DNA from: Thermomicrobium sp.
GTDB lineage: Bacteria; Chloroflexota; Chloroflexia; Thermomicrobiales; Thermomicrobiaceae
NCBI GenBank assembly: GCA_026419575.1
Contig: JANZZC010000133.1
Coordinates: 2,496-66,495, forward strand
DNA length: 64,000 nt
Reading direction: 5' to 3'
The position numbers and the translations under genes are program-made. Below the pieces are notes generated by a model, which searched no databases, was not told the origin of the DNA, and worked only from the letters and a program-made list of their open reading frames with translations. How positions within the stretch are numbered: the first letter of the stretch is position 1; the number at the start of each line of letters is the position of its first letter. Of this stretch, positions 9,597 to 52,687 are shown piece after piece.

Positions 9597-11224
9597 CGTT
9601 CGTCCGCCTCCCGTGCCGCAGCGGCGCCGACCGCTGGCTCTTCGGTTCGCCCCGGTCGGATATCGGGTAGGAGCGTGCTGGCGACGAAGCCGATCGCGAT
9701 GAAGGCGGCGGCGACGATCGCGGTCCGTCGCGCTGCAGTGGTGAAGGCACGCTCGATCGCCTCGACGACGGCCGTCGTGCCGGGCTGCTGCCGCAGTTCC
9801 ACGAGGATCTGGCCGGCCGATTGCTTGGTGGCGCGGGCGATGGCGACGGCCTGCTCGGCCGGCAGACCGAGGTCGCGCAGCCGTGCCTCGGTGCCGGAGG
9901 AGAGTCCGGCGGCCAGGACGGCGCCGAGCAGGGCGATGCCGAGCGCCGCGCCGACCTGGCGCGTCGTGCTCTGCGTTCCCGAGGCCTGTCCGGACTGGGC
10001 TGTCGGTACCTCGGCGAGGATGACGCTCGTCAGTTGGGCGGTCGCGAGACCGACGCCGAGCCCGTACAGGAAGAGCGCAGGGGCGAGCCGCCAACCGGTC
10101 GTGGTGGGGGAGAGGAAGGGGACGATGAGCAGGAGTCCGCTGGCCTCCAGGATCATGCCCGCACGGACGACCTGCCGGGCGCCGAAGCGTTGGGCGAGGT
10201 TCGCCGCGGCTGGACCACCGAGGAAGGCGCCGATCGCTGTCGCCAAGAGGACGAAACCGGTCTGGAGCGCCGTATAGCCGAGCACCGCCTGCAAGTACAG
10301 GGGAAGGACGAAGACGATGCCGAACTCGCCCAGGCTCACGATGAGTGCTGCCAGGTTGCCCCAGCGGAAACTCGGGTAGCGGAAGAGCCGCAGGTCGAGG
10401 AGCACCGGCTGGCCTCGACGGATACGACGGAGTTCGTACCAGGCGAAAGCCGGCAGGACGAGCGCCGCGATCGCGAGCGCGATCGGGACGGGCGAGAGCG
10501 TGCGGAGCGGCCATTCCCAGGAACCGATCCGGAAGGTGTCCGTCGGATGCCACCAGCCGTAGCGTTCGCCCTCGATGAGACCGAAGACGAGAGCGCCGAA
10601 ACCGAGCGCACTCGAGACGATACCGAGGAGATCCAACCCGCGTTGCGTGTGCGGGTCGCGCGTCTCGGGGACCGTCAGAAGTGCCACGGTACCGGCCAGG
10701 AGACCGAGCGGGAGGTTGATGCCGAAGGCCCACCGCCAGGAGAAGTCGGTCGTGAGCCAGCCGCCAACCAGCGGACCGAGGGCCGCGACGCCGCCGATGA
10801 CCGAGCCCCAGATCCCGAAGGCGATCGCGCGTTCGCGTCCGCGGAACATCGCGTTCACGCTGGAGAGGGTCGAGGGCAAGATGAAGGCGGCTCCGATCCC
10901 TTGGGCGGCGCGTGCCGCGATCAGGAGCCCGCCGCTGGGCGCGATGGCGCAGAGGAGGCTGGCGAGGACGAAGAGACCCAGACCGATGAGGTACACCCGT
11001 TTGCGGCCGAAGAGATCGCCCAGGCGACCGACCGTGACGAGGAGCGCAGCGAAGACGAGGGAGTAGACCGAGTTGATCCATTCGGCATCGGTGAGCTGGA
11101 GGCCGAGGTCAGCGATGATGCTGGGGATCGCCACGTTGACGATCGTCGCGTCGACGATGATCATAGCGAGACCGAGGGCGAGCGAAGCGAGCCCGATCCA
11201 CCGCATGCTTCCGTTCACCTGCAT
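9593..11224 (-). CDS. MFS transporter, DHA2 (EmrB/QacA, 14-TMS) family
   Basis: Start MQVNGSMRWIGLASLALGLAMIIVDATIVNVAIPSI with GGAGGAG upstream. Motif GRLGDLFGRKRVYLIGL. 543 aa. The track ORF extension beyond 11224 is non-coding-looking. Confidence 0.88.
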   Translation of the reverse strand: MQVNGSMRWIGLASLALGLAMIIVDATIVNVAIPSIIADLGLQLTDAEWINSVYSLVFAALLVTVGRLGDLFGRKRVYLIGLGLFVLASLLCAIAPSGGLLIAARAAQGIGAAFILPSTLSSVNAMFRGRERAIAFGIWGSVIGGVAALGPLVGGWLTTDFSWRWAFGINLPLGLLAGTVALLTVPETRDPHTQRGLDLLGIVSSALGFGALVFGLIEGERYGWWHPTDTFRIGSWEWPLRTLSPVPIALAIAALVLPAFAWYELRRIRRGQPVLLDLRLFRYPSFRWGNLAALIVSLGEFGIVFVLPLYLQAVLGYTALQTGFVLLATAIGAFLGGPAAANLAQRFGARQVVRAGMILEASGLLLIVPFLSPTTTGWRLAPALFLYGLGVGLATAQLTSVILAEVPTAQSGQASGTQSTTRQVGAALGIALLGAVLAAGLSSGTEARLRDLGLPAEQAVAIARATKQSAGQILVELRQQPGTTAVVEAIERAFTTAARRTAIVAAAFIAIGFVASTLLPDIRPGRTEEPAVGAAAAREADER

Positions 11225-12805: not shown

Positions 12806-14377
12806 TCAGTCGATGTAGTTGTAGGCGATGAACGTCAGGAACTCGATGAACTCGTCGGAGAGCACCAGGCGATCCAGAATCTCCCGAGCTTCACCGAGCC
12901 GGCCGACTCCGGGCCCACCCAACTTCGCGACTTCCTCGTCCCTGATCCGCTCGTAGAGCTCGGCCGTGACCGGTCGGCCGTCATCGAGTTCCGCACCGTG
13001 GAAGCGCCATTGCCAGAGTTGCGCGCGCGAGATTTCCGCCGTCGCGGTGTCCTCCATGAGGTTGAAGATCGCGGCGGCTCCCTGGCCGCGCAGCCAGTTG
13101 TCGAGGTACTGGAGCGCGACGCTGACGTTGTTCCGCAGCCCACCTTCGGTGATGCGACCGCCCGGCACGCGCACGTCGAGAAGATCGCGCGCCGTCACCC
13201 GCACGTCCTCGCGCAGGCGATCCTTCTGGTGCGGCTTCTCGCCGAGGACGCGATCGAACACTTCCATGGCGACCGGGACGAGGTCGGGATGGGCGACCCA
13301 GGTCCCGTCGAACCCATCGTTGGCCTCGCGCTCCTTGTCCTCGCGCACCTTAGCGAGCGCGACCTCGTTGACCTGCGGGTCGCGGCGGCTCGGGATGAAG
13401 GCCGCCATGCCGCCGATCGCGTGCGCACCACGGCGATGACAGGTGCGGACGAGGAGTTCGGTGTACGCCCGCATGAACGGGACGGTCATCGTGACCTGCG
13501 CGCGATCCGGGAGAAGGAACTCGCGATGCCGGCGGAACTTCTTGATGATGCTGAAAATGTAGTCCCAGCGTCCGGCGTTGAGCCCAGCAGCGTGATCGCG
13601 CAGCTCCCAGAGGATCTCGTCCATCTCGAACGCCGCGAGGATCGTTTCGATCAAGACGGTCGCCCGGATGGTTCCGCGCGGGATACCGAGCCGATCCTGA
13701 GCGAAGTTGAACACGTCGTTCCAGAGCCGGGCTTCGAGGTGGCTCTCGAGTTTCGGGAGATAGAAATACGGTCCCGAACCGCGGGCGAGGAGCTCGTGGG
13801 CGTTGTGGAAGAAGTAGAGGCCGAAGTCGAAGAGGCTCGCCGAGATCGGCTCGCCGTCGACGAGCACGTGTCGCTCGACGAGGTGCCAGCCCCGCGGGCG
13901 GACGACCAAGGTGGCTGTCTTCTCGGCCAGGCGGTAGACTCGGCCATCCGGGCTCTCGAAACTGATCGTGCGACGCACCGCGTCGCGCAGGTTGATCTGT
14001 CCTTGGACGACGTTCGCCCAGGTCGGCGACAACGCATCCTCGAAGTCGGCCATGAAGACGCGGGCACCGGAATTGAGCGCGTTGATCATCATCTTGCGGT
14101 CGACCGGCCCGGTGATCTCGACGCGCCGGTCTTCGAGGTCGGGTGGTGCCGGTGCGACGCGCCACTCGCTCTCGCGGATATGGGCCGTCTCCGGGAGAAA
14201 GTCGGGAAGTTGCCCAGCGTCGAGTGCTCGCTGCCTCTCGGCGCGACGTGCGAGCAGCTCCAGACGACGCGGGTTGAATTCCCGGTGGAGGGCAGCGACC
14301 AAGTCGAGCGCTGGCTCGGTGAGGATCTCGGCGAACTCCGGGGTGACCGGACCGACGACGCGCACCTCTCGACCCAT
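12806..14377 (-). CDS. aceB: malate synthase A
   Basis: 523 aa. [47 protein letters not shown] and [11 protein letters not shown] are classical malate synthase A blocks. ATG with GAGGGAGGA upstream. Confidence 0.95.
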
Positions 14378-14435
14378 ACCTGATCCTCCCTCACCTGGTG
14401 ATCTCGCCGACCGTCCGGGGCGATTGTAACGGAAA

Positions 14436-14471
14436 CGAGCTGGGAGAGGACGCGCGTCCTCTCCCAGCTCG
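14436..14471 (-). terminator. 15-bp perfect intercistronic hairpin between aceA and aceB (partial terminator or mRNA-stabilising stem)
   Basis: CGAGCTGGGAGAGGA-cgcgcg-TCCTCTCCCAGCTCG. On the minus strand it is followed by TTTCCGTT. It sits 5 nt after the aceA stop. Confidence 0.45.
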
Positions 14472-14476
14472 TACGG

Positions 14477-15637
14477 TCAGACGACCGCTTCTTCAGGAAG
14501 GTCTTCTTCGAACTGCGTACCGAGGCGTGGCGCGTCGTACACCTGGCCGAGGAGGTGGTGGTAGGGGACGCCCGAGAAGAAGTGATGGCTGCGGGTGGGG
14601 AAGTCGGTCCCCGGTGCCCACTCGCGCTTCTGGAGATCGATGTACGCCTCCTGCTGGCGGGCAGCGAGGTCCTGGAGCAGTTCGCTGAAGCCGAGTCCCA
14701 TCGCGTGTTGCGCAGCGAGGGTGATGAAGATGAACCGGACACCCATTTCGCCGAGCTCGCGGAAGCTGATCGGGTCGGGATCCGTGAACCACTTGAACGA
14801 CGACGACCAGTTGAAGGCGAAGCGCGCCTCGGGGAAGCGCTTCCGCACTTCCTCGACGAACGTCTCCAGTGGGCCGCGCTCGGAGGTTGGGAACTCGCAC
14901 CAGATCAAGTCCGGAACTCCGCTGTCGAGGTAGCGGAGCGCGCGCTCGATCGCCAGCGGCAGTCCGCGCAGGGATTCGGGAGCATCCACCGCCGAGACTC
15001 CATCGGTGCGAGCGATGATGACGAAGTCCGGATTGCCGAGGTCATCCGCGACGGCCCGCATCATCTTGAGCTTGCCGACCATCTCGCGGGCAGGGATGAG
15101 CGCCTTGCCGGCGATGTGCCCGCAACGCTTGGGCATGACCTGGTCCTCGATGTGCGCGCCAGCCACGCCGGCCGTGACGTAGAGCTCGGTCGTCCGCTGC
15201 ACGTTGAAGATGTTGCCATAGCCCGTATCCATGTCGGCGACGACCGGCGGGATGTGGAGGTGCCTGGGAGGAATGCCCTTCTCCGGATCGCCGACGGCCA
15301 TCGTGAGTTGGAACTTGCGGAGCGCCGAAACGATACGACGCGCCGCGTCAGCGATCTCGACACTGGCGTAGAGATCCATGTCGGTCGTTCCCAGGTGGCC
15401 GATCGCGAAGGAGTAGCCGCTGAAGTAGACCGCCGGGAAACCGTAGTACATGACGAGTTCCGCACCGTGCGGATCGAAGACGCCCGGCGCGAAGACGTAC
15501 GGGAGAGTGTCGAGCAGCTGGCGGAGTCGGGTGCTGGGATGGATCCAACGGGATGCCGGAACGGTGAAGCCGGGCGGCAGCAACGGCGTTTCACGGAGTT
15601 CTTCGGGATTCCCTGGGGGCTGGGGCAGCGACCACAT
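14477..15637 (-). CDS. aceA: isocitrate lyase (ICL/PEP-mutase superfamily)
   Basis: ICL signature KRCGHIAGK and the DMDTGYG metal site. It lies immediately upstream of aceB. Start MWSLPQ chosen because AAGGAGGAA lies 5 nt upstream. Confidence 0.85.
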   Translation of the reverse strand: MWSLPQPPGNPEELRETPLLPPGFTVPASRWIHPSTRLRQLLDTLPYVFAPGVFDPHGAELVMYYGFPAVYFSGYSFAIGHLGTTDMDLYASVEIADAARRIVSALRKFQLTMAVGDPEKGIPPRHLHIPPVVADMDTGYGNIFNVQRTTELYVTAGVAGAHIEDQVMPKRCGHIAGKALIPAREMVGKLKMMRAVADDLGNPDFVIIARTDGVSAVDAPESLRGLPLAIERALRYLDSGVPDLIWCEFPTSERGPLETFVEEVRKRFPEARFAFNWSSSFKWFTDPDPISFRELGEMGVRFIFITLAAQHAMGLGFSELLQDLAARQQEAYIDLQKREWAPGTDFPTRSHHFFSGVPYHHLLGQVYDAPRLGTQFEEDLPEEAVV

Positions 15638-15887
15638 GGCGTTCCTCCTTCCCTCGGGGACGACCTGAATTTCGTGCATACCGGACACGGTTCTCGGTAT
15701 CAACGGGCTCGGAGGCTTCGGTTCTCGTCATGAGAACACCTTATGAACGAGGGGCGGTCAGCGTCCTACGTGCGGTCCCGCGGTGGGGGTATCGGGGGAA
15801 TGCCGGTACGGTGTCCTCGCGACGGGCACTGGCCTTTCCATCTCGTTCCTCCCGCTCCAGAAGCCCGAAGGCGAGCTCGCCCGCTGC

Positions 15888-15916: not shown

Positions 15917-15958
15917 GGCCAATAGCACTTCGTGATGCGCCGTATAGGGGGCATCTAT

Positions 15959-16858
15959 ATGGATGTGAGCTTGCGGCAACTCCAGGTGTTCCGAGCGGTA
16001 GCCCGGCACCGGAGCTTTTCCCGCGCAGCGGAGGAGCTGGTCATCAGCCAGCCGGCGGTCTCCGCGCAGATCAAATCGCTCGAGCAGGTGCTCAATGTCC
16101 CTCTCTTCCAGCGGACCGGTCGCGGTGTCGAGCTGACCGAGGCAGGCCGCCAGCTTCTCCCGTATGCCGAGCGGATGCTCGATCTCCTGGAGGAAGCGCT
16201 GACCGCGGTGCACGAGCTCCGAGCGGCCCAACGGGGGCGCGTCCGCGTCGCGGCGAGCACGACGGCCGGCATCTACGTGGTGCCGAAAGCGCTCGGCGCC
16301 TTTCACCGTGCCTATCCGGGCGTCGAGCTCTCGCTCGACGTCCTGAACCGCTACGCTGTCCAGCAGCGTCTCCTCGCCGGCGACGCAGACCTTGCGATCA
16401 TGGGGCTGATCGAGGACCCGCAGGACTTGGAGATCGCCCAGTTCTTGCCGAACGAACTCGTCGTGATCGCGTCCCCACGCCATCCGTTGGCTCGCCGGCA
16501 TCGGATCCCGCTCGAGGAGATCGCGCGCGAACCGTTCCTGGTGCGCGAGATCGGCTCGGGGACGCGCAGCGACACGGAACGCATCTTCGCCGAGGCGGGC
16601 TTCCCGTTGCGCGTCGCCATGGAGCTGCGGAGCAACGGCGCGATCAAGCAGGCTGTGGCAGCCGACCTCGGCGTCGCGGTGATGCCGCGGGACGCGATCG
16701 GACTCGAGTTGGAGACCGGGCGACTCGTCGTCCTCGACGTGCAAGGTTTTCCGGTCCGGCGTTGGTGGTCTCTCGTCCGCCGAGCCGGTCGTCCGGTATC
16801 ACCGGCAGCCGACGCGCTCTGGCATTTCCTGCTGCAGTACCGCCTGCAGCCTCACTGA
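15959..16858 (+). CDS. LysR family transcriptional regulator (divergent from aceA-aceB)
   Basis: N-terminal wHTH LRQLQVFRAVARHRSFSRAAEELVISQPAVSAQIKSLE plus a LysR substrate-binding domain. Confidence 0.9.
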   Translation: MDVSLRQLQVFRAVARHRSFSRAAEELVISQPAVSAQIKSLEQVLNVPLFQRTGRGVELTEAGRQLLPYAERMLDLLEEALTAVHELRAAQRGRVRVAASTTAGIYVVPKALGAFHRAYPGVELSLDVLNRYAVQQRLLAGDADLAIMGLIEDPQDLEIAQFLPNELVVIASPRHPLARRHRIPLEEIAREPFLVREIGSGTRSDTERIFAEAGFPLRVAMELRSNGAIKQAVAADLGVAVMPRDAIGLELETGRLVVLDVQGFPVRRWWSLVRRAGRPVSPAADALWHFLLQYRLQPH

Positions 16859-17700: not shown

Positions 17701-17805
17701 GGGTTCCCTCCGGTCGTCGATCGTAACACGCCGTTCCGTGGCACCGGATATCGCGATACGCTACGCTTGGCGACGTGAAACGCTGGTACAGGGAAGGGGG
17801 CCGGG

Positions 17806-18522
17806 ATGGCGATACTCTCTCCAGCCGATCAGGAGTACCTGCGGGGCGTCTTCGCGGAGCGTCTGCGCGACCCGGTGACGATCGAGCTGTACACGCAGCG
17901 CGTCACCGCGATCAGTATCCCCGGATACGAGTGCGCGACGTGCCGGGAGACGAACCAGCTTCTCGAAGAAGTCGCCGCGTTGTCCGACAAGATCACGCTG
18001 CAGATGTACGACCTTTTGCAGGACGCCGAGCGTGCCCGGGCGGCGGGAATCGAGGAGATCCCGGCCATCGTCCTCAAGGGCCACAACAAGGGAACGCTCC
18101 GCTTCATCGGCGTGCCCGCCGGGTACGAGTTCGCGACGCTCATCGAGGACATCATCGACGTCTCGCGCGGCACCACCGAGCTGTCGCCGTTGAGTCGCGA
18201 GACGCTCGCCAAGCTCGCCCAACCGGTCCATATCAAGGTCTTCGTGACGCCTACTTGACCCTACTGCCCACGTGTCGCCAGGTTGGCGCACATGATGGCG
18301 ATCGAGAGCGAGAAGGTCATCGCTGACGTCGTCGAGGTCAGCGAGTTCCCCCACATCGCACAGCGGTATCGGGTTTTCGCCGTTCCCAAGGTCGTCATCA
18401 ACGAAGCGCTCGAGTTCGAGGGAGCGCGGCCGGAGGCAGCGTTCGTCGCCATGGTCGAGTCGGTGGCCGGATCGCCGCCGACGGACAACGAGAAGGGAGA
18501 CGGTACCTCGTCCGGCGGATGA
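17806..18522 (+). CDS. two-domain thioredoxin-fold protein disulfide oxidoreductase / glutaredoxin-like protein, probable selenoprotein (TGA 18256-18258 read as Sec)
   Basis: Track ORFs 17806-18258 and 18283-18522 are in the same frame. Read-through gives VFVTPT-U-PYCPRVARLAHMMAIE...FPHIAQRYRVFAVPKVVINE, so TGA replaces the first Cys of the expected TPTCPYCP. The N-terminal unit keeps CATC. A SECIS-like hairpin follows, and selB is in the window. Confidence 0.75.
18265..18300 (+). promoter_or_regulatory. candidate bacterial SECIS hairpin
   Basis: Upper stem G72-C91, U73-A90, G74-C89, bulged U75, then C76-G88, G77-C87, C78-G86, C79-G85 (coordinates are 182xx). Loop is A-G-G-U-U (18280-18284). 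Lower stem 18265-18270 pairs with 18293-18300. It starts 7 nt after the TGA. Confidence 0.6.
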
Positions 18523-20072
18523 CGCGGGAGAGCGAGGCGCTACCGCACTGGGATGCGGTGGTCGTCGGGTCCGGCCCCAACGGTCTCGCCGCGGCGCTCG
18601 AGCTCGGACGCCGCGGGCGACGAGTCCTGGTGCTGGAGCGAGCTCCGGTGCCCGGTGGGGGGTTGGACACGCGGGCCGGTCCGATTGCCGGTTGCCTCGT
18701 CGACCATTGCGCCACGGTCTTTCCGCTCGCCCGGGCCTCGCCCTGCTTCGCCGCCTCCGGGATCGTCGAGCGCTTGCCTTGGATCGAGTCCCCGGCGGTT
18801 CTCGCGCATCCGCTGGGCGACGGAACGACCGTGCTGCTCTGGCGGGATGTCGAGCGGACGGCTGCGGAGCTCGGCTGCGATGAACGAGGCTACGCGGCGC
18901 TGTTCCGACCGTTGGTGGACGACGCGCCGCAGCTGCTCGCGACGCTGCTCGGCCCGGCGCCAGGACTCGTCCGGTTCCCCGGATCCCGACTGCCGGCGCG
19001 GGCCTTGCTGCGTTTCGCGCGCTCCGGTCTCCGGTCGGCGGCGAGCCTGAGCCGACAGTTCCGATCCGAACGCACGCGGGCGCTCGTCGCTGGGCTGGCG
19101 GCGCACAGCACGTTGCCGCTCGAGTGGGCGCCGTCGGCCGCGTTCGCGCTCGTCCTGGCGATCGCCGGACACCGCGTCGGCTGGCCGCTCCTCCGCGGCG
19201 GCGCGGTCACGCTCGGCCGCGCCCTCGCGGAGGAGGTAGCGAGAGCTGGCGGGAGTGTGGAGTGCTCATTTCCGGTGGAGCGTTTGGCGGATGTACCGCC
19301 TGGGCGCTCGCTCGTTCTCGACGTCGCGCCACCGGCGGCACTGGCGCTCGCGGGCGAGCGCTGGCCGCTGCGGTACCGTCGGACGCTCCGTTCCGTCCGC
19401 CCGGGCCCCGGTGTCTTCAAGGTCGATTGGCTCGTCCGGCAGGGGATTCCGTGGCAGGACGAGCGATGCCGGCTCGCGGCGACCGTGCACGTCGGTGGGG
19501 CCTACGACGAGATCGCGGCTGCGGAGCGGGCGGTCGCGCTCGGGCGCGTGCCCGAGCGTCCGTTCGTCATCCTGGTGCAAGCGAGCCGCTTCGATCGCTC
19601 CCGGACGATCGACGGCGTCGAGGTCGTCTGGGGCTACTGCCATGTGCCGAACGGTTGGAGCGGCGACCTGACGGCCGCGATCGAGGCGCAGGTCGAGCGG
19701 TTCGCGCCCGGATTCCGGGAACGGATCGTCGCGCGCCGGACCTGGGAACCGCGCGAACTCGCTCGCGCGAACCCCAATCTGGTCGGTGGGGATCTCACCG
19801 GGGGATGGCCGACGCTCGGGCAGCTCTTCGCTCGACCGGCCGGCTGGCCGTGGCCGCCGTACTGCACGCCCGATCCGGCGATTTTCCTCGCGAGCGCGGC
19901 GACACCTCCAGGGGGCGGCGTGCACGGGATGTGCGGTTACTGGGCGGCGCAGCAGGTCGAGCGGTGGCTGGCGCGCCTCGACCGGCCTCACGCCGGTCGA
20001 GGTCGCTCTGGGCGAATCGACGCGAACGGCAGGGCGCACTTTCGACCGCGTCCCGGGCCCGCGGCGAGTTGA
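18519..20072 (+). CDS. NAD(P)/FAD-dependent oxidoreductase, phytoene-desaturase (COG1233) family
   Basis: Dinucleotide fold DAVVVGSGPNGLAAALELGRRGRRVLVLE...PGG. 517 aa. ATGA overlap with the preceding thioredoxin-fold gene. Confidence 0.85.
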   Translation: MTRESEALPHWDAVVVGSGPNGLAAALELGRRGRRVLVLERAPVPGGGLDTRAGPIAGCLVDHCATVFPLARASPCFAASGIVERLPWIESPAVLAHPLGDGTTVLLWRDVERTAAELGCDERGYAALFRPLVDDAPQLLATLLGPAPGLVRFPGSRLPARALLRFARSGLRSAASLSRQFRSERTRALVAGLAAHSTLPLEWAPSAAFALVLAIAGHRVGWPLLRGGAVTLGRALAEEVARAGGSVECSFPVERLADVPPGRSLVLDVAPPAALALAGERWPLRYRRTLRSVRPGPGVFKVDWLVRQGIPWQDERCRLAATVHVGGAYDEIAAAERAVALGRVPERPFVILVQASRFDRSRTIDGVEVVWGYCHVPNGWSGDLTAAIEAQVERFAPGFRERIVARRTWEPRELARANPNLVGGDLTGGWPTLGQLFARPAGWPWPPYCTPDPAIFLASAATPPGGGVHGMCGYWAAQQVERWLARLDRPHAGRGRSGRIDANGRAHFRPRPGPAAS

Positions 20073-20104: not shown

Positions 20105-20252
20105 CAAGACCTTCGGGGCAGGGTGAGGCGCGAAGGCGCCAATTCCCGACCGGCGGTACAGCCCGCGAGCGGCCTCTGGCCGCAGGATCCGGTGAGGCGC
20201 GAAGGCGCCAATTCCGGAGCCGACGGTATAGTCCGGATGGGAGAAGGTCGTT
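20105..20252 (+). promoter_or_regulatory. FMN riboswitch (RFN element) upstream of ribD
   Basis: Conserved blocks CUUCGGGGCAGGGUGA..AAUUCCCGACCGGCGGUA.AGCCCGCGAGC ... GAUCCGGUGA..AAUUCCGGAGCCGACGGUAUAGUCCGGAUGGGAGAAGG. P1 is GACCUUC pairing with GAAGGUC. Confidence 0.9.
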
Positions 20253-20297
20253 GCTCCGGTCGATCGTACCGGCGCATCAGCGACTTCGACCGAACCT

Positions 20298-20325
20298 GAA
20301 CCCGGGGGCTCTGCCACCCGGGTTC
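20298..20325 (+). terminator. hairpin in the FMN riboswitch expression platform (possible terminator or sequestor)
   Basis: GAACCCGGG-ggctctgcca-CCCGGGTTC followed by GTCGTTGTGG, a weak U tract. It ends 19 nt before the ribD ATG. Confidence 0.35.
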
Positions 20326-20343
20326 GTCGTTGTGGAACGAGCG

Positions 20344-21501
20344 ATGGAGACGAGGCAGACCGCCGCAACACGCGACACCGACCGCCAGTGGATGCAGCGG
20401 GCCATCGCCCTGGCCTGGCGTGCGGCTGGTCGGGTTGCCCCGAATCCGGCAGTCGGCGCGGTTATCGTCCGCGACGGCCGGGTGGTCGGCGAGGGGTGCA
20501 CGAAGCCTCCGGGTGGACCGCATGCCGAAATCGTCGCGCTCCAGGCAGCCGGAGATCAGGCTCGCGGAGCGACGCTCTACGTCACGCTCGAACCCTGCGC
20601 GCACTACGGCCGCACGCCCCCGTGCGTCGAGGCAATCGTGCGCGCCGGAATCCAGCGCGTCGTCGTCGCCCTCCGGGATCCGTATCCGGAGGTGGATGGT
20701 CGCGGTATCGCGGCGCTCCGGGCCGCTGGCGTGGAGGTGGACGTCGGGGTGGAGGCCCCCTCCGCCGCGGAGGTGGTCGCCGGGTATCTCAAGCGGCTGC
20801 GCACGGGGCTTCCCGAAGTGACGCTGAAGTACGCGATGACGCTCGACGGCCGTCTGGCCACGCGAACCGGGCATTCGCGTTGGATCACCGGGCCGGAGGC
20901 TCGTCGGTATGCGCACCAGCTGCGCGACCGGCACGACGCGATCCTGGTCGGTGTCGGAACGGTGCTGCGGGACGATCCGGAACTGACGACCCGGCTCGAT
21001 GCGGCGGACTGCGGCGACGGCGGGCCGCCCCATCCGCTACGCGTCGTCCTCGACAGCCGAGCGCGGACGCCGCCGACGGCCCGGCTCCTCTCGCGCGGCA
21101 TACCGGGCCGGACGTTGATCGTCACGACCGATGCCGCACCGCCGGACCGTCTCGTCGCGTTGCGGGAGGCCGGTGCGGAGCTCCTCACCGTGCCGGCGCG
21201 TTGCGGGAAGGTGGACCTCCGCGGTGCCCTGGGGGAACTCGCGAGGCGCGGCACCAACAGCGTCCTGGTCGAGGGCGGCGGTCTGGTGCTCGGTTCGCTC
21301 TTCGACGAGGCGCTGGTCGACCGGGTCGTCGTGTTCGTCGCGCCGGTGCTCGTCGGTGGGGCGGACGCGCCGGTTCCCCTGACGGGACGCGGTGTGGCCA
21401 CGATGGAGGAGGCGGTACGACTGCGCGACGTACGGGTTCGCCGACTGGGAAGCGATGTCGTGTTCGAAGGGCGCGTGCGTCCGATCGAACTACCGGAGTG
21501 A
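20344..21501 (+). CDS. ribD: bifunctional diaminohydroxyphosphoribosylaminopyrimidine deaminase / 5-amino-6-(5-phosphoribosylamino)uracil reductase
   Basis: Deaminase motifs NP.VGAVIV, HAEI.AL and TLEPC.H.GRTPPC, then the reductase domain. First gene after the FMN riboswitch. Confidence 0.93.
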   Translation: METRQTAATRDTDRQWMQRAIALAWRAAGRVAPNPAVGAVIVRDGRVVGEGCTKPPGGPHAEIVALQAAGDQARGATLYVTLEPCAHYGRTPPCVEAIVRAGIQRVVVALRDPYPEVDGRGIAALRAAGVEVDVGVEAPSAAEVVAGYLKRLRTGLPEVTLKYAMTLDGRLATRTGHSRWITGPEARRYAHQLRDRHDAILVGVGTVLRDDPELTTRLDAADCGDGGPPHPLRVVLDSRARTPPTARLLSRGIPGRTLIVTTDAAPPDRLVALREAGAELLTVPARCGKVDLRGALGELARRGTNSVLVEGGGLVLGSLFDEALVDRVVVFVAPVLVGGADAPVPLTGRGVATMEEAVRLRDVRVRRLGSDVVFEGRVRPIELPE

Positions 21502-21504
21502 GAA

Positions 21505-22167
21505 ATGTTCACGGGGATCATCGAGGAGATCGGTGAAGTTCGCGCGGTGCAACCGATCGGCGGTGGCGGTGCACGCCTCCGCATCGGCTGTCGCGTCGTG
21601 CTCGAAGGAACGAAGATCGGTGACAGCATCGCGGTCGACGGCGTGTGCTTGACCGTGACCGATCTGGCGCGAGACAGCTTTCTCGTCGAGCTCCAGCCGG
21701 TCACGCTGCGACGGTCGGCGCTCGGGACGCGTCGTGTCGGCGACCCGGTCAACCTGGAGCGAGCGGTCGCTGTCGGCGGGAGGTTCGGGGGCCACTACGT
21801 GCAAGGACATGTCGATGGGATCGGACGGGTAACGGCGTCGTACCGGGACGGTCCGGCGCTCGTCGTGCGGATCGCCGCTCCGCCGGAGCTCATGCGCTAC
21901 GTGGTCGAGCGTGGGTTCATCGCGGTGGACGGAGCGAGCCTCACCATCCAACGGCGAACGGCGAGCGAGTTCGAAGTCTCGCTCGTCGCCTATACCCAGG
22001 AGCACATTACCCTGCCGCGCAAGGAAGTCGGAGCGCCGGTCAATTTGGAGGTCGATATCGTCGCGAAGTACGTCGAGCAATTCGTCCGGCTCGGCACGGC
22101 GAGCGGCCTGACCGGTGAGCTGCTCGAACGTGCCGGGTTCGGTTCGGAGTTCGGAGGTCGGTCGTGA
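21505..22167 (+). CDS. ribE: riboflavin synthase (alpha chain)
   Basis: MFTGIIEEIG.V and GDSIAVDGVCLTV, with the duplicated lumazine-binding repeat. Confidence 0.95.
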   Translation: MFTGIIEEIGEVRAVQPIGGGGARLRIGCRVVLEGTKIGDSIAVDGVCLTVTDLARDSFLVELQPVTLRRSALGTRRVGDPVNLERAVAVGGRFGGHYVQGHVDGIGRVTASYRDGPALVVRIAAPPELMRYVVERGFIAVDGASLTIQRRTASEFEVSLVAYTQEHITLPRKEVGAPVNLEVDIVAKYVEQFVRLGTASGLTGELLERAGFGSEFGGRS

Positions 22168-23420
22168 CGCGATTCGAACGGGTCGAGCGAGCCATCGACG
22201 CTTTCCGGGCCGGTCGCTTCGTCATCATCGTCGATGATGCTGAGCGCGAGAACGAGGGAGATCTCGCGATCGCGGCGCAGTTCTGTACGCCCGAGGCGGT
22301 GAACTTCATGGCGCGCGAGGCGCGCGGCTTGATCTGCGTGCCGATGGCGCCGGAGTGGGTCGACCGGCTCGGCTTGCCGCTCATGGTTCCGCCCGATGCC
22401 AACAGCTCCCGGTTCCGCACGGCGTTCACCGTGTCGGTCGAGGCGCGCGAGGGGGTCTCCACCGGCATCTCCGCCTTCGATCGGGCGCGGACGATCCAGA
22501 AGCTCGCGGACCCGACCGCGACGCTCGAGGATTTCATCATGCCCGGACACGTCTTCCCGCTCCGAGCGCGTCCTGGGGGCGTGCTCGAGCGGGACGGTCA
22601 GACGGAGGCCTCGGTCGATCTCGCTCGTCTGGCAGGACTCCATCCGGTCGCGGTCGTCTGCGAGATCATGAGCGCCGACGGGACGATGGCGCGGTTGCCC
22701 GAGTTGGAACGCTTCGCCGCCCGGCACGGGATTCCCTTGGTCCATGTCGCCGATCTCATCGCCTACCGGATCGCCCGCGAGCGGGTGGCGCGCTGCGTCG
22801 CCGAGACGACGTTGCCGACGAGCGTCGGCACCTTCCGTCTCCGTGCCTACCAGCGGTTCGGTGGCGACGAGATCGACCTCGCGCTCGTCATGGGAACGCT
22901 CAAGAGCGACGAGCCGGTGCTGGTGCGGCTCCATTCCGAGTGCCTGACCGGGGACGTCTTCGGGTCGCAGCGCTGCGATTGCGGCCCGCAACTCGAGAAC
23001 GCGATGCAGCGGATCGCGAGCGAGGGGCGCGGCGTCATCGTGTACTTGCGTCAGGAGGGGCGCGGCATCGGCCTCTTGAACAAGCTACGGGCGTATCACC
23101 TGCAGGACCGCGGGCTCGACACGGTGGAGGCGAACCTCCAGCTCGGCTTCCCGGCCGATCTCCGCGACTACCGGGAAGCAGCGATCATCCTGCGTGACCT
23201 CGGTGTCGAGCGCATCCGGCTCATGACGAACAATCCGCGCAAAGTCGCGGCGCTCGAGGATCTCGGGTTCACGGTCGTCGAGCGCGTGCCGATCGAGCTC
23301 CCACCCACGGAGCACAACCGGCGGTCTCTCCAAACGAAGCGCGACAAGTTAGGGCAACTCGTGTTGCTCGACGAACTGACTGCAGTCGTCGGCGAGTCCG
23401 AGCGAGGAGGCGCAGGATGA
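22164..23420 (+). CDS. ribBA: bifunctional 3,4-dihydroxy-2-butanone-4-phosphate synthase / GTP cyclohydrolase II
   Basis: DHBP synthase block (VDD..RENEGDL, GHVFPL) followed by GCH II ([35 protein letters not shown]). Confidence 0.95.
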
Positions 23421-23932
23421 TACGACCCGATGACCAGCCGGTGCGAACCATAGCAGCGTCCTTGAACGGGCGCGGCCGTCGTTTCGCGATCGTGGTCAGT
23501 CGCTTCAACGAGCTCATCTCCAGCCAGCTGCTGCGCGGAGCGCTCGACGGTTTGATCCGTCACGAGGTGGAGCCACAAGCGATCGACGTGGTCTGGGTGC
23601 CTGGGTCGTTCGAGATTCCGCTGACCGCGAAGCGTCTGGCGCAGACCAATCGGTACCATGCCGTCATCTGCCTCGGTGCGGTGATCCGTGGAGCGACGCC
23701 GCATTTCGACTACGTCGCTGGCGAGGTCGCGAAGGGAATCGCGAACGCGTCGCTCGAGACGGGCGTCCCCATCGTGTTCGGCGTACTCACGACCGACACG
23801 ATCGAGCAAGCGGTCGAGCGCGCCGGGACGAAGCTGGGCAACAAGGGGTTCGAGGCAGCGATGACCGCACTCGAGATGGCCAATCTGATGAGCGAACTCG
23901 AGCGCTTGACCGTTTCGTCGCTCGAGGCCTGA
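23417..23932 (+). CDS. ribH: 6,7-dimethyl-8-ribityllumazine synthase
   Basis: [32 protein letters not shown] and FGVLT motifs. ATGA overlap with ribBA. Confidence 0.95.
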
Positions 23933-27045: not shown

Positions 27046-27858
27046 GCTACGGAACGGGACCTTGCGGTCGCTCTCGTTCAGCGACCAGAATCGCTCGGTC
27101 AGACCGCCGTCGCCGAGTTCGGCCGCGTACCGCCGGAGCGTCGCCTCGACGTCGCCGAGGTCGCGGAAGATGAACGCGAGTTGGCTCCGGTACTGGTCGA
27201 TCGCCGCGATCCGCCGCTCGAAGAGTTCCTCGGTAAGCGGCACGATCCAGGGGGGACTCGGCGCGTGGAGCGCGAAACGCGCGAGCGTGGCGCGGCCTGA
27301 CACGGTCGCCGCGTAGGGAAGATCCTCGTAGCACCAGACGACGAACCCGCGATCCGCCAGGCGCTGGCCCACCGCCCGGGCGAGCTGGTGATCGACGTGG
27401 TTGCCGATCGCCAACGGAGCGAAGACCGTCACCGGCTTCGGGAGCGCTTCCAGGAAGGCATGGACCTCGTCGGCGAGTTCTTCGAGCAGTCCGGCGTCGT
27501 CCGGATGGATCGGACCGAACAGTTCGTCGTCGGAGGTATAGCGAGCGTCGCGGTAGATCGCGTCAGGATAGTCGAGCCAGCGAGCGGTGGCGCCCAGAAC
27601 GGCTGCGGCAGCTAGTTCCTCGTTCCGGCGGATCCGGATGACCGTGGTGTCGTCGAGCCCGCGCCAGCGGTGCTGCTGGCGTGCGAACGGCGTGAGGGGA
27701 CCACGCGGTTCGCCGCCGAAGAGCGTGAGGATGATGGTGTCGATGCCGAGGGAACCGAACAGCGCCACCGTGCCGCCGCACGACAACGGCACGTCGTCGA
27801 AGTGCGGCGAGAGGAAGAGCGCGCTCGCCGATGGATCAGACGTACCGGACGCGAGCAT
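27031..27858 (-). CDS. PIG-L / LmbE family deacetylase (second copy in window)
   Basis: LFLSPHFDDVPLSCGGT and later HxDH (GNHVDHQ) motifs. 23-nt overlap with the selB 3' end. Confidence 0.85.
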   Translation of the reverse strand: MLASGTSDPSASALFLSPHFDDVPLSCGGTVALFGSLGIDTIILTLFGGEPRGPLTPFARQQHRWRGLDDTTVIRIRRNEELAAAAVLGATARWLDYPDAIYRDARYTSDDELFGPIHPDDAGLLEELADEVHAFLEALPKPVTVFAPLAIGNHVDHQLARAVGQRLADRGFVVWCYEDLPYAATVSGRATLARFALHAPSPPWIVPLTEELFERRIAAIDQYRSQLAFIFRDLGDVEATLRRYAAELGDGGLTERFWSLNESDRKVPFRSSTGP

Positions 27859-29728
27859 CGCCGACTCGACGCGTGACGCGCTGCTGGTCGAGGTACTCGA
27901 GGAGAGCTTGTGCGTACTTGCGGCTGGTTCCCAGGGCGTCGCGCACCTGGGCGAGCGTGACGCTGCCGTTCGCGTCGATGAGCGCCAGGACCCGTTCGCG
28001 GATCTCCTGCCAGGCGTCCGGAGCGAAGACGACCTCGTCGGTGATCCGGACGACTCGACCCAGATCGGCGAGCGCCTGGACGAGTTCCGGATCCAAGCCG
28101 AAGTCGGCGGGGGCCGGAGGTGCGAACGGTTCCCGCCGGAGGGCCGCTTCGTAGGCCCGAGCGCGCTCCTCTTGCTCCGGCGAGAGACGGATGCGGTGCT
28201 CCGGCGTGCGCAGCACCTCGCCGTCTTCGACGAGCACCCCTTCGCTGGCCAGACGGCGCACGAGCAGATCGAAAGGCCGTTGCGTCAGGCCGAGACGGCT
28301 CCGCGCCATCTCCCGCGGCAGACCGCGGCGGAGCGGAAACCGCGCGTGGTACTCGGCCAGCGCTCGCAGCAGCTGTGCCTGCAGCCGCTCGACCACGTCG
28401 CGACGGACGAGCACGGTCGTTAGCCCGAGCGAATCGCCGGTCGTGTCCAGCGCCACCAGCCGGCCCTGGGCGATGAGTCGGTGCACGGCCCGCGTCGCCG
28501 CGGACTCTTCGAGGTTGGACCGTTGCAGGAGCTCGCGCCACTCGTACAACCCGCTCTCCAGGACGTGCAGGAGGATCGCCTCCGGATCACCCGAGGCGAG
28601 CGCTTCCAACCCCCGTATGACGTCCGGGCGGAAGCGGCGATGCCGCCGGGGATGCGTGTCGACGACGACGCCGCCGGCGAGCGTCGCGCTGGGCGAAGGG
28701 CGGCGCAGGATGAAGCGATCCCCGCGCAGGGCGACGATCGGGTGCTGCAGGCGGATCTGCACCCACCCGCTCTGGCCTGGTTCCAGCCGCTCGGCATCGA
28801 GCAAGGTCACCCGCGCGAGGGTCTCGCTGGTGCCGATGAAGAAGTCGACTTCGTCGTTCTGTTCGAGCGGTGCCGGTGCGTCCGCTACCAACCGGAGCTT
28901 GGCGTCGAGCAGCGTGGTCGGTTCCAGCCAGCCGGGGACGGTCAGGACGTCGCCCCGCTCGATCTCCTCGACCTCGACGCCGCTCAGGTTGACGGCGGTG
29001 CGCGAGCCGGGCGCGGCCCGCTCGACCTTCGTGCGGTGGCTCTGCAGTCCGCGGATGCGCGCTCGCAGACGGCGCGGCAGGATCTCGACCTCCTGGCCGA
29101 TTTCCAGGAAGCCGTCGCGCAGGGTGCCGGTCACGATCGTGCCGAAGCCTGGCATCGTGAAGACGCGGTCGATGGCGAGTCGTGGTCTCCCGTGTCCGGC
29201 ATGGGTCGGGACCGTCTCGAGGAGCTGGTCGATCGTCTGGACGAGTTCGTCCAGCCCCTCGCCGGTGACCGCCGACACCGGAACGATCCGCGCGCCTTCC
29301 AAAACGGTTCCGCGCAAGAGTTCCTCGACTTCGACCGTGACCAGCTCCAACCAGTCGGCATCGACGAGATCGCGCTTGGTGAGAACGACGATACCGTAAC
29401 GGATCTCCAGGAGATCGAGGATGGCGAGATGCTCGCGGGTCTGCGGCATCGGCCCTTCGTCGGCAGCGACGATCAGAAGGGCCGCATCGAAACCGCCGAC
29501 GCCGGCCAGCATGTTCTTGATGAAGCGTTCGTGTCCGGGAACGTCGACGATGCTCAGGCGACGGCCGCTCGGGAGCGTGAGCCAGGCGAAGCCGAGATCG
29601 ATCGTCATTTCCCGTTCTTTCTCTTCCCGCAAGCGGTCGGGATCGATGCCGGTGAGCGCCTTGACGAGGGTCGATTTGCCGTGGTCGACGTGCCCGGCGG
29701 TGCCGATAACATAGGTGTGGCGATTCAT
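27836..29728 (-). CDS. selB: selenocysteine-specific translation elongation factor
   Basis: 630 aa. GTPase motifs [21 protein letters not shown] and TKRD. EF-Tu-like domains II/III are followed by a long winged-helix C-terminal extension, a SelB-typical length and architecture. Confidence 0.92.
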
Positions 29729-29805
29729 GCCCGGTTCGCCTCTCCCATGTCCTTCGCCGTCAAGTGTAACGGTTCGCGCGCTGGCGCGGTGGGAGGGCAG
29801 GGTCG

Positions 29806-30708
29806 ATGGAATCCGTCACGATCCCGCGCTCCGCGACCAGTCCGGCGTTCGCTGCCGATGCGGTGCCGGTTGCTCGCGTACCGCCCGGTACGGTCGTCAT
29901 CTTCGAGACGACCGACGAACCGTATCGCTCGCTGGCGAGCGGCGTTCCGGTCGACCGGTCGGCGCTCGAGCGGTTCAATCTGGTGTCGGGCCCCCTCGCG
30001 GTCGAGGGGATCGAGCCTGGCGACGTGCTGCGCGTCGACATTCTCGAAATCACGATCGAGCGCGCTTGGCTCGTCTTTCTGCGATCTTATGGGCCACTCG
30101 GGGACCTGCTGCCCGAGACGCTCTGCAAGCAGCTGTCCATCGAGGCGGGTCGACTCGTCGTCTCGTCGCGTCTCCGCCTGCCGGTGCGACCGAGCATCGG
30201 TTGCCTCGGCTTGGCGCCGCGTTCCGGCCGCACGTCGACCTTCCGGCCGGTCCGACCCTGGGGCGGCAATCTGGATCTCCCCGAACTCGCGCCGGGGAGC
30301 ACGGTGTGGCTGCCGGTGCAGCGGCCCGAGGGGTACCTCTATGTCGGTGACGTCCACGCCGCGATGGGCGCGGGTGAGCCCGCGCACGTCGGTATCGAAG
30401 CAGCGGCGCGGGTGCGCGTGCGGGTCGATCGCAGCCAGGGGTTGTGCTGTCCTGCCCCGCGTATCCGGACGACAGGGGAGCTCCTGTTCGTCGGGATCGG
30501 CGAGACGGTCACGGTCGCGCAGCGCCATGCGCTGGAGCATGCTGTCGGGGCTCTCCGGAACGAGTACGGACTGGCTTCCAGCGAGGCGTACGCGCTCGCG
30601 AGCGCGTGTCTCTCGTATCGGTTCGGCGGTCCGGCCGGGCCGGTAGTCCTCGCAGCGGTGCCGCTCGACGTCCTGGCTCAATTGCCCGCGTCGGCGACCC
30701 CGAGCTGA
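29806..30708 (+). CDS. acetamidase/formamidase family protein
   Basis: SGPL.VEG.EPGD.L.V.I, GGN.D and GD.HA.MGAGE are blocks of the FmdA/AmdA family. Confidence 0.85.
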
Positions 30709-32741
30709 CTCGCTAGTTCCTGCGGCGTCGTGACCGGGCGTTGGCAGACGAACTCGCGGCAAACATAGGCCGTCGGTTGCCCGTCGATCGCCTCCCGCCC
30801 GGCGAGGAGCGGGACGATCCGGGGAGCCTCCTCGTCGCCGGGCCGACGGAGGGCGAGGACGCGATTCGGTAGGTAGTTGCCGTACACGACGCGCAGCAGC
30901 GCCTGCGTCCGGGTGTCTTCCGGCGTCCCCACGATGGCGATCTCGAACGGTCGGCCGAGCGCGAAGTCCATCGCCACCAGCAATTGCCCGCAGGCGATCG
31001 GGTGTTCGACGGCGATGCGGGCGTAGCGTTCGAGCACGTGGGTCGCCCGATCGAGGTAGCGTCGCTCCCCGAGCAGGGTGCCGAGCCGGAGCAACGCTTC
31101 GGCAGCGGCACCGTTCCCGCTCGGCGTGCCTTGATCGACGAAAGTTTTCGGCCGGACGATCAGCGGCTCGCCGTCCTCCGGGGTGTCGAAGAAGTCGCCG
31201 GTCTCCGGATCGAGGAAGCGCTCCAGAACGACCTCGGCGAGTTCCCGAGCCCAGGCGATCCACGCGGGATCGAACGTCGCTTCGTAGAGTGAGATCAATC
31301 CATTGGCGAGATCGGCGTAGTCGTCCAGGAAGCCCGGGAAGCGCGGCTCGCTCTCTTCCCACACGTGGGAGAGCCGTGTCCCGTCCCACAGGTGCTGCCG
31401 GACGAAGGTCGCTGCCTCGGCGGCGACCTGCGCGTAGTCCGGCCGGTCGAAGGCGGTGGCCGCCTCTGCGAACGCCCGAATCGCGAGACCGTTCCAGGCG
31501 ACGATGACCTTTTCGTCGTGCGCCGGTGCGGGGCGGCGACTGCGAGCTTCGAAGAGGACGGCACGGGCCTGCCGGATCCGCTCATCCAACTCGTCCAGGG
31601 AGAGGCCGAACTCGGCAGCGATCGCCTCCGGATCGTCGGGAATGTGCAGGATCGACATTCCTTCGAAGTTGCCTTGTGGGGTCGCGCCGTAGTAGCGGCG
31701 AACGAGCTGTGCGTCGTCGGGCGGGAGCAGCGCCTCGATCTCGTCGAGGGTCCACAGGTAGTACGCACCCTCGCCACCCTCGCTGTCGGCGTCCTGAGCC
31801 GAGAAGAAGGCCCCGTGCGCTCCCCGCATCTCGCGCAACAGGTACCCCAGGGTGTCCTCGGCGACCCGGCGGCACCAGGCGGCGCCCGAAGCGAGGTACG
31901 CCTGGGTGTAGACCCGGGCCAGGAGGGCGTTGTCGTACAGCATCTTCTCGAAATGCGGGATCAACCAGGCGTCGTCGACCGTGTACCGGTGGAATCCACC
32001 GCCGACCTGGTCGTGGAGTCCTCCGCGAGCCATGGCCGCGAGACTCTGGAGCACCATCTCGAGCGCACGCGGTGCCCCGGCTCGGCGATAGGTGCGCAGC
32101 AGGAACTCGAGCTGGAGCGGCGCAGGGAACTTCGGCGCTTGGCCGAAACCACCGTGAACCCGGTCGTACTGGGGGACGAGGTTCCGGGCGGCCTCGTCGA
32201 GGAATTGCTCGCGGAGCGCTTCCGGAGTCAAGGGCGGCCGTGTCTGTTGGTGGAGGTACTGGACGAGATCCTCAGCCGCACGCTGTACTTCCTCGCGGCG
32301 TTCCCGATAGGCGTGAGCGACGGCGACGAGGACGCGGGGCCAGGCTGGTAGTTGTCCGCGGTCTTCGGGCGGGAAGTAGGTGCCGCCGTAGAACGGCTTT
32401 CCGTCCGGCGTGAGGAAGACGTTGAGCGGCCAACCGCCGGAGCCGGTCATCGCCTGGACGGCGTTCATGTAGAGCTCGTCGAGGTCGGGACGCTCCTCCC
32501 GGTCGACCTTGATATTGACGAAAAGTTCGTTCTGGAGCGCGGCGATCTCGGGATTCTCGAAGCACTCGTGCTCCATGACGTGGCACCAATGGCAGGAGGA
32601 GTAGCCGATACTGAGCAGGATCGGCTTGTCCTGCTCGCGGGCGACGCGGAACGCCTCTTCGCCCCACGGGTACCAGTCGACGGGGTTATCGGCGTGCTGA
32701 CGCAGGTACAGGCTCTTCTCGTTGGCGAGGCGGTTCGACAT
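30678..32741 (-). CDS. thioredoxin-domain (DUF255) / N-acylglucosamine-epimerase-like protein, YyaL family
   Basis: Start [31 protein letters not shown]. Motif [17 protein letters not shown] long alpha/alpha-toroid C-terminal part follows. 687 aa. Confidence 0.9.
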
Positions 32742-32921
32742 GGCGATCCTCGCTTTCGCGCTCGGTTGCCCGCACGGTTCCCGGTGGGACCGGGTTCGAT
32801 CAAGGATACCGGACGGAACGGGCGTCGGCGGCGATACGTCGATACCGTGCGCATCGGGCCGCTGGCACCGGAGCGGTGAGGCGCCGATTTGACGTCGGGG
32901 CGCTGGCATGCTAGCCTGAGC

Positions 32922-48335: not shown

Positions 48336-48360
48336 GCGGTGCATCGAAGAGGAGGGCGTC

Positions 48361-49317: not shown

Positions 49318-49362
49318 CGACGGCGCTGCGCAGGACGAGCGGTTCGCGAGAGGACGGGCGGA

Positions 49363-52676: not shown

Positions 52677-52687
52677 CGGTCGACTCC

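Follow-up and report, generated by a model that had tools for sequence, protein, structure and literature searches.

A predicted selenocysteine-containing protein disulfide oxidoreductase of Thermomicrobium, truncated in public annotation

A 64,000-nucleotide stretch of a Thermomicrobium sp. genome (Chloroflexota; assembly GCA_026419575.1, contig JANZZC010000133.1, positions 2,496 to 66,495), called the window below and numbered from its first letter, carries on its forward strand a gene at 17806–18522 that contains an in-frame UGA at codon 151 and whose predicted read-through product is a two-domain protein disulfide oxidoreductase (PDO). We conclude, with a probability of about 0.9, that the gene does encode a selenoprotein, with the UGA read as selenocysteine (Sec). 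A preliminary description of the window, made from its letters alone, had proposed that the TGA replaces the nucleophilic cysteine of a CPYC motif and that two open reading frames (ORFs) together encode one probable selenoprotein; this proposal is supported here by Cys/Sec pairs among homologs, by selection on the codons that follow the UGA, by a hairpin resembling a bacterial Sec insertion sequence (bSECIS), and by an intact selB gene. The Sec-containing PDO is a selenoprotein family known since 2004, and the Thermomicrobium gene is a new, mis-annotated member of it.

Results

Two ORFs share one frame at this locus: the first (17806–18258) begins with ATG and encodes 150 amino acids, the second (18283–18522) begins with TTG and encodes 79, and the TGA at 18256–18258 is the sole stop between them, a layout that had been described correctly. 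Reading through this codon gives ...HIKVFVTPT-[TGA]-PYCPRVARLAH... and a complete gene of 238 sense codons, from the ATG at 17806 to the TGA at 18520–18522, for a predicted product of 238 residues with two thioredoxin-fold units. A Shine-Dalgarno-like AAGGGGG (17794–17800), read off the sequence 5 nt before the ATG, may function as such. The N-terminal unit has the ordinary redox motif C43-A-T-C46 (17932–17943) that the preliminary description had pointed out, and a CxxC is kept at this place in the database relatives P0001–P0091; the C-terminal unit would carry U-P-Y-C (18256–18267), opened by the UGA that we predict to be read as Sec.

The window has a GC content of 68%, and a scan of it for in-frame TGAs flanked by coding-type GC at third and second codon positions returned the 18256 site and three ordinary gene junctions. 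TGA is the stop codon of 32 of the 36 confirmed genes in the window, the PDO gene included, and the genetic code is thus standard, not reassigned. Nor is the arrangement at codon 151 a product of chance, since the same TGA recurs in five further Thermomicrobium loci (L001–L004 and L007), in T. roseum (L130/L131) and in at least 120 metagenome contigs.

For scoring against NCBIfam profiles, the UGA in the read-through product was replaced by C. The product matches TIGR02187.2 (PDO_seleno_TRX, protein disulfide oxidoreductase) at 258.8 bits, above the curated equivalog cutoff of 185, over profile positions 3–207 of 209; in Pfam it matches two Thioredoxin_3 stretches and DUF7088, as well as the generic Glutaredoxin domain. 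The PDOs of the PDB (1J08, 1A8L, 2AYT/2YWM and 2HLS) align over nearly its whole length at E values of 1e-40 to 1e-28, among them 1J08 of P. horikoshii (1e-40) and 1A8L, the P. furiosus PDO (residues 1–217, 6.9e-40). The FVTPTCPYCP segment of these proteins aligns residue by residue, and the UGA falls at the first cysteine of the 1J08 CPYC. From primary sequence, the gene product is a predicted PDO of the TIGR02187 family with two thioredoxin-fold units, and the earlier identification as a two-domain PDO/glutaredoxin-like protein holds.

The family also goes by the names 'AhpF N-terminal domain homologue' and glutaredoxin-like protein. Neither AhpF nor glutaredoxin is an applicable name, because the corresponding models score far below their cutoffs: classical glutaredoxin is rejected by GRX_bact (24.7 bits against 90) and GlrX_YruB (20.2 against 88.55), and AhpF by TIGR03140 (62.6 against 502.9) and TIGR03143 (90.9 against 687.65), the 238-residue product having no flavoprotein module. 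The AhpF scores likewise make the JGI label 'alkyl hydroperoxide reductase subunit AhpF', attached to 150-residue fragments, misleading. The N-terminal domain of AhpF (PDB 1ZYN and 1HYU) is a homologous double-thioredoxin fold with its redox CxxC in the second fold, detected at E values of 1e-7 to 1e-6; AhpF, however, carries a fused thioredoxin-reductase-like FAD/NADH module that the Thermomicrobium PDO does not have.

Homologous loci were recovered from Thermomicrobium genomes (seven loci, L001–L007) and from T. roseum (L130, strain DSM 5159, CP001275; and L131), and a metagenome scan with TTYGTNACNCCNWSNTGACCNTAYTGYCC returned at least 120 contigs (L010–L129). Codon 151 is TGA in the window, in L001–L004, in L007 and in both T. 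roseum loci; it is TGC in two Thermomicrobium loci (L005 and L006), in a metagenome-assembled genome (MAG) of Thermotogae (L008) and in a Heimdallarchaeota MAG (L009), and across these four and the additional loci L132 and L133 the aligned codon is TGC or TGT. The column of the UGA is that of the first Cys of the xPYC motif in P0001–P0091 and in L005, L006, L008 and L009, and the full-length database relatives P0001–P0005 all have CPYC or CPHC. Alignment with orthologs, which had been suggested as a check, places Cys exactly opposite the TGA in Cys-type relatives. The metagenome contigs have the same TGA, each followed by a homologous frame that runs for ~70–85 codons in nearly all complete cases. 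The surroundings of the gene are also conserved: in T. roseum the order is malate synthase, isocitrate lyase, LysR, DUF72, PDO, FAD oxidoreductase, rib operon, carboxypeptidase, PIG-L and selB, as in the window.

We compared the window with Sec-type loci by the method of Nei and Gojobori, which gives rates of nonsynonymous (dN) and synonymous (dS) substitution. Codons 152–218 (67 codons) show a dN/dS of 0.02–0.07 at a dS of ~0.8–2, and the codons before the TGA a dN/dS of 0.03–0.16, so that the part after the UGA is equally or more constrained. The P-Y-C-P codons directly after the UGA have undergone synonymous change only (CCC/CCG/CCA, TAC/TAT, TGC/TGT) among loci that were found by whole-protein similarity. 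The 11 codons that separate the TGA from the first possible ATG (PYCPxVARLAH, codons 152–162) keep their protein sequence while their third positions vary, and neither a frameshift nor a second stop follows the TGA across Thermomicrobium sequences that have diverged to a dS of at least ~1. The synonymous variation in PYCP and in codons 152–162 indicates that translation runs through the UGA and does not restart at the TTG or an ATG; together with purifying selection after the UGA, it excludes both a pseudogene and an independent 79-residue gene.

These data bear directly on two other explanations of the locus. According to the first, the TGA is a true stop, and the gene is either a decaying pseudogene or the source of a 150-residue thioredoxin-like product alone, followed by an untranslated remnant. 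Public annotation agrees with a product of this length, a 150-residue 'thioredoxin family protein' (P0006 and P0017), and, Sec insertion being inefficient as a rule, a truncated product is probably made to some extent in any case. Yet at least seven Thermomicrobium sequences retain the TGA at a dS of ~1 or more with the low dN/dS after it that is given above, the same pattern is found in the metagenome homologs, and the 150-residue product would end one residue short of the active-site motif in an otherwise intact fold. We consider a true stop highly improbable.

According to the second, the locus encodes two separate proteins, of 150 and of 71–79 residues, the latter started at TTG 18283 or at ATG 18292 or 18295, which might reassemble a split thioredoxin fold. 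An AGG does stand 9 nt ahead of in-frame ATGs (18292 and 18295), and in T. roseum (L131) the Logan gene caller predicts a 71-residue product there. However, codons 152–162 precede any such start and are nonetheless conserved with synonymous variation, and hence translated; the AGG belongs to the invariant loop of the hairpin described below; and Cys-type orthologs are single and continuous, while a C-terminal fragment would be without the xPYC motif. A pair of separate proteins is accordingly very hard to reconcile with the locus. The preliminary description had argued against an independent downstream gene on the ground that it would lack the redox motif, an argument that the 11 conserved codons before the first ATG strengthen; it had also named homologs with a separately translated downstream protein as grounds for rejecting a selenoprotein, and the continuous Cys-type orthologs contradict that scenario.

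A UGA that is read as Sec in bacteria is expected to be accompanied by a bSECIS, for which the general model is that of Zhang and Gladyshev (2005), as summarised in PMC13188914. By the criteria in that summary, the element has an apical loop of 3–9 nt on an upper stem of 4–16 bp, a spacing of 16–37 nt from the UGA, a G within the first two loop positions (N1-G-[G/U]-N-N2), and a minimum free energy (MFE) of at most -7.5 kcal/mol. A predicted hairpin core of this kind lies at 18272–18291 on the forward strand (nucleotides 17–36, the U of the UGA being 1), 16 nt past the UGA, with the sequence GUGUCGCC-A-GGU-U-GGCG(C)AC. It consists of a 5-bp upper stem (21–25/29–33), a one-base bulge and a lower stem of 2–3 bp, and its lower helix extends over 18265–18300; the apical loop is G26 G27 U28 (18281–18283), closed by A25-U29. 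Over 24 nt it folds with an MFE of -11.0 kcal/mol (z -2.5), which falls to -17.8 kcal/mol (z -2.7) over 36 nt once the lower helix is included. The hairpin thus agrees with all four criteria: firstly, it has a 3-nt loop on a 5-bp stem; secondly, the loop begins 22 nt after the UGA; thirdly, the loop with its closing pair reads A-GGU-U; and fourthly, -11.0 kcal/mol is below the threshold.

The codons that form this hairpin are constrained beyond what they encode. Across six Sec-type loci, 21 of the 157 degenerate codons with an invariant amino acid (13%) are also invariant as codons, and the only run of three or more such codons in the gene is 157–161, GTC GCC AGG TTG GCG, the codons that form the core of the hairpin. 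Rare codons of the window are used here: AGG accounts for 2.2% of Arg codons and TTG for 10% of Leu codons. The Cys-type locus L006 encodes A-A-R-L-A as GCT GCT CGT CTC GCG and has lost the hairpin (-3.3 kcal/mol, z ~0).

Family-wide, 82 of 114 unique TGA-type sequences have a hairpin that starts at nucleotides 19–30 and has 5 or more consecutive base pairs and GU in its loop, as compared to 16.9 ± 3.3 (maximum 26) of 114 after synonymous recoding. The sequences fall into two main registers, assigned by peptide and not by structure: class A (x-A-R-L-A), which includes the window, has its loop GGU at nucleotides 26–28, and class B (A-V-x-L-A) has a loop CGUGGU at nucleotides 21–26. In class A, the pair 21–33, formed by two third-codon positions, is C-G in 11 sequences, G-C in 26, G-U in 3 and unpaired in 2; 89.6% of cells are paired, as compared to 25–42% in slid controls. 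The covariation score of 0.138 exceeds both the 0.049 of shuffles, none of 500 of which attains it, and the values of at most 0.05 in slid controls; because the sequences are related, these figures are supportive and not exact probabilities. In class B, codons 156 and 160 switch jointly (CGA/CTC in 23 sequences, CAA/CTT in 12), such that the replacement of Arg CGA by Gln CAA at codon 156 goes with a compensating synonymous change at codon 160 (Leu CTC to CTT). Given the invariant codon run, the rare codons, the loss in L006 and the family-wide hairpin excess and covariation, the hairpin is under RNA-level constraint in addition to coding constraint.

The elongation factor gene selB had been placed 9.3 kb from the PDO gene, and we found it there, intact, at 27836–29728 on the reverse strand. 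It encodes 630 amino acids that match TIGR00475 at 368.7 bits against a cutoff of 242, with the Pfam domains GTP_EFTU, Beta-barrel_SelB, SelB-wing_2 and SelB-wing_3. Compared with its T. roseum counterpart it is without internal stops and under purifying selection (dN 0.21, dS 1.4, dN/dS ~0.15), in conserved synteny. From these sequence features selB is apparently functional in Thermomicrobium, and we know of no role for it apart from Sec delivery. In three metagenome loci (L020, L097 and L106), six-frame tblastn with the E. coli SelA and SelD proteins, run on every locus and on the window, placed selA a few kb or less from the Sec-PDO gene; a further tblastn with both proteins against a plasmid collection, aimed at the T. 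roseum megaplasmid, did not show Thermomicrobium among the matches listed, a minority of all matches.

No selA adjoins selB in the window: an ORF that abuts it (29725–31389, reverse strand), considered as a selA candidate, matches no family and is probably a spurious high-GC ORF. Upstream of selB, a reverse-strand gene of 743 codons (30678–32909) encodes a thioredoxin-domain protein (Pfam Thioredox_DsbH/DUF255, 257.6 bits) with a weak NCBIfam match to the selenoprotein TsoB family, and the 950-bp gap between the two contains a partial acetamidase/formamidase-like ORF (29806–30708, forward strand). A LysR regulator gene (15932–16858, forward strand) lies ~950 bp upstream of the PDO gene, a position kept in T. 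roseum; its best NCBIfam match is NF040786, a selenium metabolism-associated LysR family transcriptional regulator, at 230.2 bits and thus slightly below the cutoff of 250.

Several observations weigh against a selenoprotein. T. roseum is an aerobic thermophile. Selenoproteins are rarely retained by aerobic bacteria (review, PMC13188914), and close relatives manage with Cys at position 151. Against dinucleotide shuffles, the 60-nt stretch that follows the UGA reaches a z of only -1.27, the signal residing in the 24–36 nt core. Rfam offers no match to the element, whether the whole window is searched at gathering thresholds or 18200–18360 at E values up to 10, where the lone match, CRISPR-DR, is a chance match. 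A related measure, the MFE against synonymous recoding over 54 nt, shows a modest shift family-wide (mean z -0.67). At 68% GC the informative tests are those on the 24–36 nt core, the synonymous-recoding controls and covariation, and the targeted hairpin criterion used above replaced the 54-nt MFE.

The last such observation is that ARAGORN, Rfam, NCBIfam/Pfam searches of ~45 ORFs and tblastn detect no selA, selD or tRNA-Sec in the 64-kb window. It also favours a third explanation, namely that the UGA is read through with an ordinary amino acid, by near-cognate suppression (Trp, Cys or Arg) or under a reassigned code. Reassignment, however, conflicts with the use of TGA as a stop in the great majority of window genes. 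A UGA exactly at the redox-active Cys is the hallmark Cys/Sec pair, the bSECIS-like element is conserved and covaries only where the TGA is present, and selB is intact and under purifying selection. Read-through without Sec is on these grounds most improbable, and decoding as Sec is the reading that we retain.

We compared closely related loci for the state of codon 151. T. roseum DSM 5159 (L130) and a metagenome strain (L132) are 98.0% identical over 20.4 kb, and their PDO genes (10001–10702 in both loci) differ at 14 positions; L131 and L133 were compared as well. In L132, TGA is replaced by TGT at codon 151 and AGG by AAG at codon 159, which turns the hairpin loop from GGU into AGU; selB is intact in both strains. 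A second case is provided by L005 (3001–3696), whose codons 1–150 are at a dS of 0.11 from the Cys-type L006 and of 3.0 from L003, whereas codons 152–218, with an intact hairpin, are at a dS of 0.23 from the Sec-type L003. This mosaic suggests that the L005 allele is recombinant near the Sec/Cys codon. Together, the L130/L132 difference and the L005 mosaic indicate that the Sec/Cys state turns over within Thermomicrobium. This within-species Sec/Cys polymorphism, between strains of 98% identity, is the one mildly new point. It is an unlikely, though not negligible, further step that the Sec/Cys state is an actively exchanged polymorphism in Thermomicrobium as opposed to a fixed trait.

Public annotation of the gene stops at the UGA. 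The NCBI entry P0006 (from a Thermomicrobium sp. MAG) is 100% identical to the 150-residue N-terminal fragment, and both it and P0017 (T. roseum, RefSeq/GenBank) are recorded as 150-residue 'thioredoxin family protein'. The T. roseum annotation ends at 150 residues with an unannotated gap behind, and the Logan assembly calls two products, of 150 and 71 residues. As had been expected, standard gene callers thus truncate the gene or split it.

Downstream, the PDO stop overlaps the ATG of a gene for a 517-residue FAD/NAD-binding oxidoreductase (18519–20072, forward strand) in an ATGA. This protein is CrtI/amine-oxidase-like (Pfam NAD_binding_8, DAO and Amino_oxidase), and NCBIfam gives only sub-threshold matches of CrtO/CrtD type. 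Translation of the flavoprotein may, we speculate, be coupled to completion of the selenoprotein. In the neighbourhood clustering it adjoins the PDO gene in 5 loci, all of Thermomicrobium, and a family-wide functional link to the FAD oxidoreductase, LysR or DUF72 was rejected, these neighbours being confined to Thermomicrobium. Outside the genus (L010–L129), Sec-type genes are most often accompanied by OsmC-like proteins in 22 loci, ECF sigma factors in 20 (with a zf-HC2 anti-sigma in 5) and TlpA/AhpC-TSA-like thioredoxins in 17. The neighbourhoods, which are lineage-specific, suggest roles related to thiols and oxidative stress.

Further features of the window were recorded. Shortly after the PDO/flavoprotein pair, an FMN riboswitch (RF00050, 20105–20252, forward strand, 85.4 bits) immediately precedes a ribD-ribE-ribBA-ribH riboflavin operon (20251–23932, forward strand). 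On the reverse strand, a TPP riboswitch (RF00059, 62083–62199, 58.9 bits) precedes tandem TENA/THI-4 genes (61370–62014 and 60686–61351), which share a frame with a single TGA between them, an ordinary gene junction and not a case of recoding. A 91-nt tRNA-Arg(CCG) called by ARAGORN (34193–34283, forward strand) lies inside a leucyl aminopeptidase ORF (33750–35255; NF002073, 468.9 bits) and is probably a false positive. The remaining context is that of ordinary metabolism, with the glyoxylate-shunt genes for malate synthase A and an isocitrate lyase-like protein (the latter below cutoff), two tandem agmatinase paralogs and a urease alpha subunit across 12806–15703 (reverse), 48289–50340 (forward) and 50976–52865 (reverse).

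Discussion

We infer Sec insertion, SelB binding, redox chemistry and the electron donor from sequence and homology, as follows. Ribosomes would start at ATG 17806 and bring the UGA at 18256 into the A site, while the hairpin at 18272–18291 presents its apical GGU loop. SelB-GTP-Sec-tRNA(Sec) would bind this hairpin, Sec would be inserted, and translation would proceed to the TGA at 18520. In the product, which by homology is probably a cytoplasmic thiol-disulfide oxidoreductase, Sec151 would stand for the nucleophilic attacking Cys of the C-unit site U-P-Y-C, with C-A-T-C retained in the N-unit, and would cycle between the selenol and a selenenylsulfide with Cys154 while substrate disulfides are reduced or isomerised. 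Re-reduction would presumably be carried out by a flavoprotein of the thioredoxin-reductase type. In archaeal PDOs the two redox sites have divided roles, with thioredoxin reductase as the usual electron donor. No thioredoxin reductase gene adjoins the PDO gene in the window, where the neighbouring flavoprotein is CrtI/amine-oxidase-like.

The predicted protein and its hairpin can be set beside known systems. With the PDOs of hyperthermophiles it has in common a length of ~226–240 residues, two thioredoxin folds, an N-unit CxxC and a C-unit xPYC in the context FVTPTCPYCP; unlike it, every solved member has Cys at the position of residue 151, and its own N-unit motif is CATC. With the known selenoproteins of the TIGR02187 family it shares the UxxC site, Sec in place of the first C-unit Cys, and a SECIS within the gene just past the UGA, but it differs from them in its Thermomicrobium (Chloroflexota) host, in records truncated at 150 residues, and in the occurrence of Sec and Cys alleles in 98%-identical strains. 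The hairpin resembles the bSECIS of E. coli fdhF in being a coding-region hairpin directly past the UGA with a small closed loop that begins with GG/GU and a one-base bulge; it has no sequence identity to that element, however, and the Sec-PDO family uses at least two registers.

Sec-type PDOs were reported from Carboxydothermus hydrogenoformans and Symbiobacterium thermophilum (PMC1794560), and a table in PMC13188914 credits the family to Kryukov and Gladyshev (2004), with ABB15282.1 as its example. It is an established, predicted UxxC selenoprotein family, and Sec forms are also noted in Asgard archaea (PMC13188914). We found no literature that names Thermomicrobium for the Sec-PDO family, for a selenoproteome or for Sec machinery.

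The understanding of how Sec is decoded is unchanged by these findings. Their main value lies in the correction of a recurring annotation error, which extends to the complete genome of the type strain of T. roseum and must affect hundreds of metagenome entries in the same way. The TGA-type homologs, at least 120 in number, with two covarying registers and near Cys alleles, could seed a SECIS covariance model and a study of Sec-to-Cys change. For the organism, the findings indicate that Thermomicrobium has a selenoprotein along with a SelB that is apparently functional, in a lifestyle where selenoproteins are rarely retained. If the Sec/Cys state is indeed actively exchanged, with selenium or oxygen driving the upkeep of both alleles, Thermomicrobium would offer a natural setting in which to measure the benefit of Sec over Cys in a thiol oxidoreductase.

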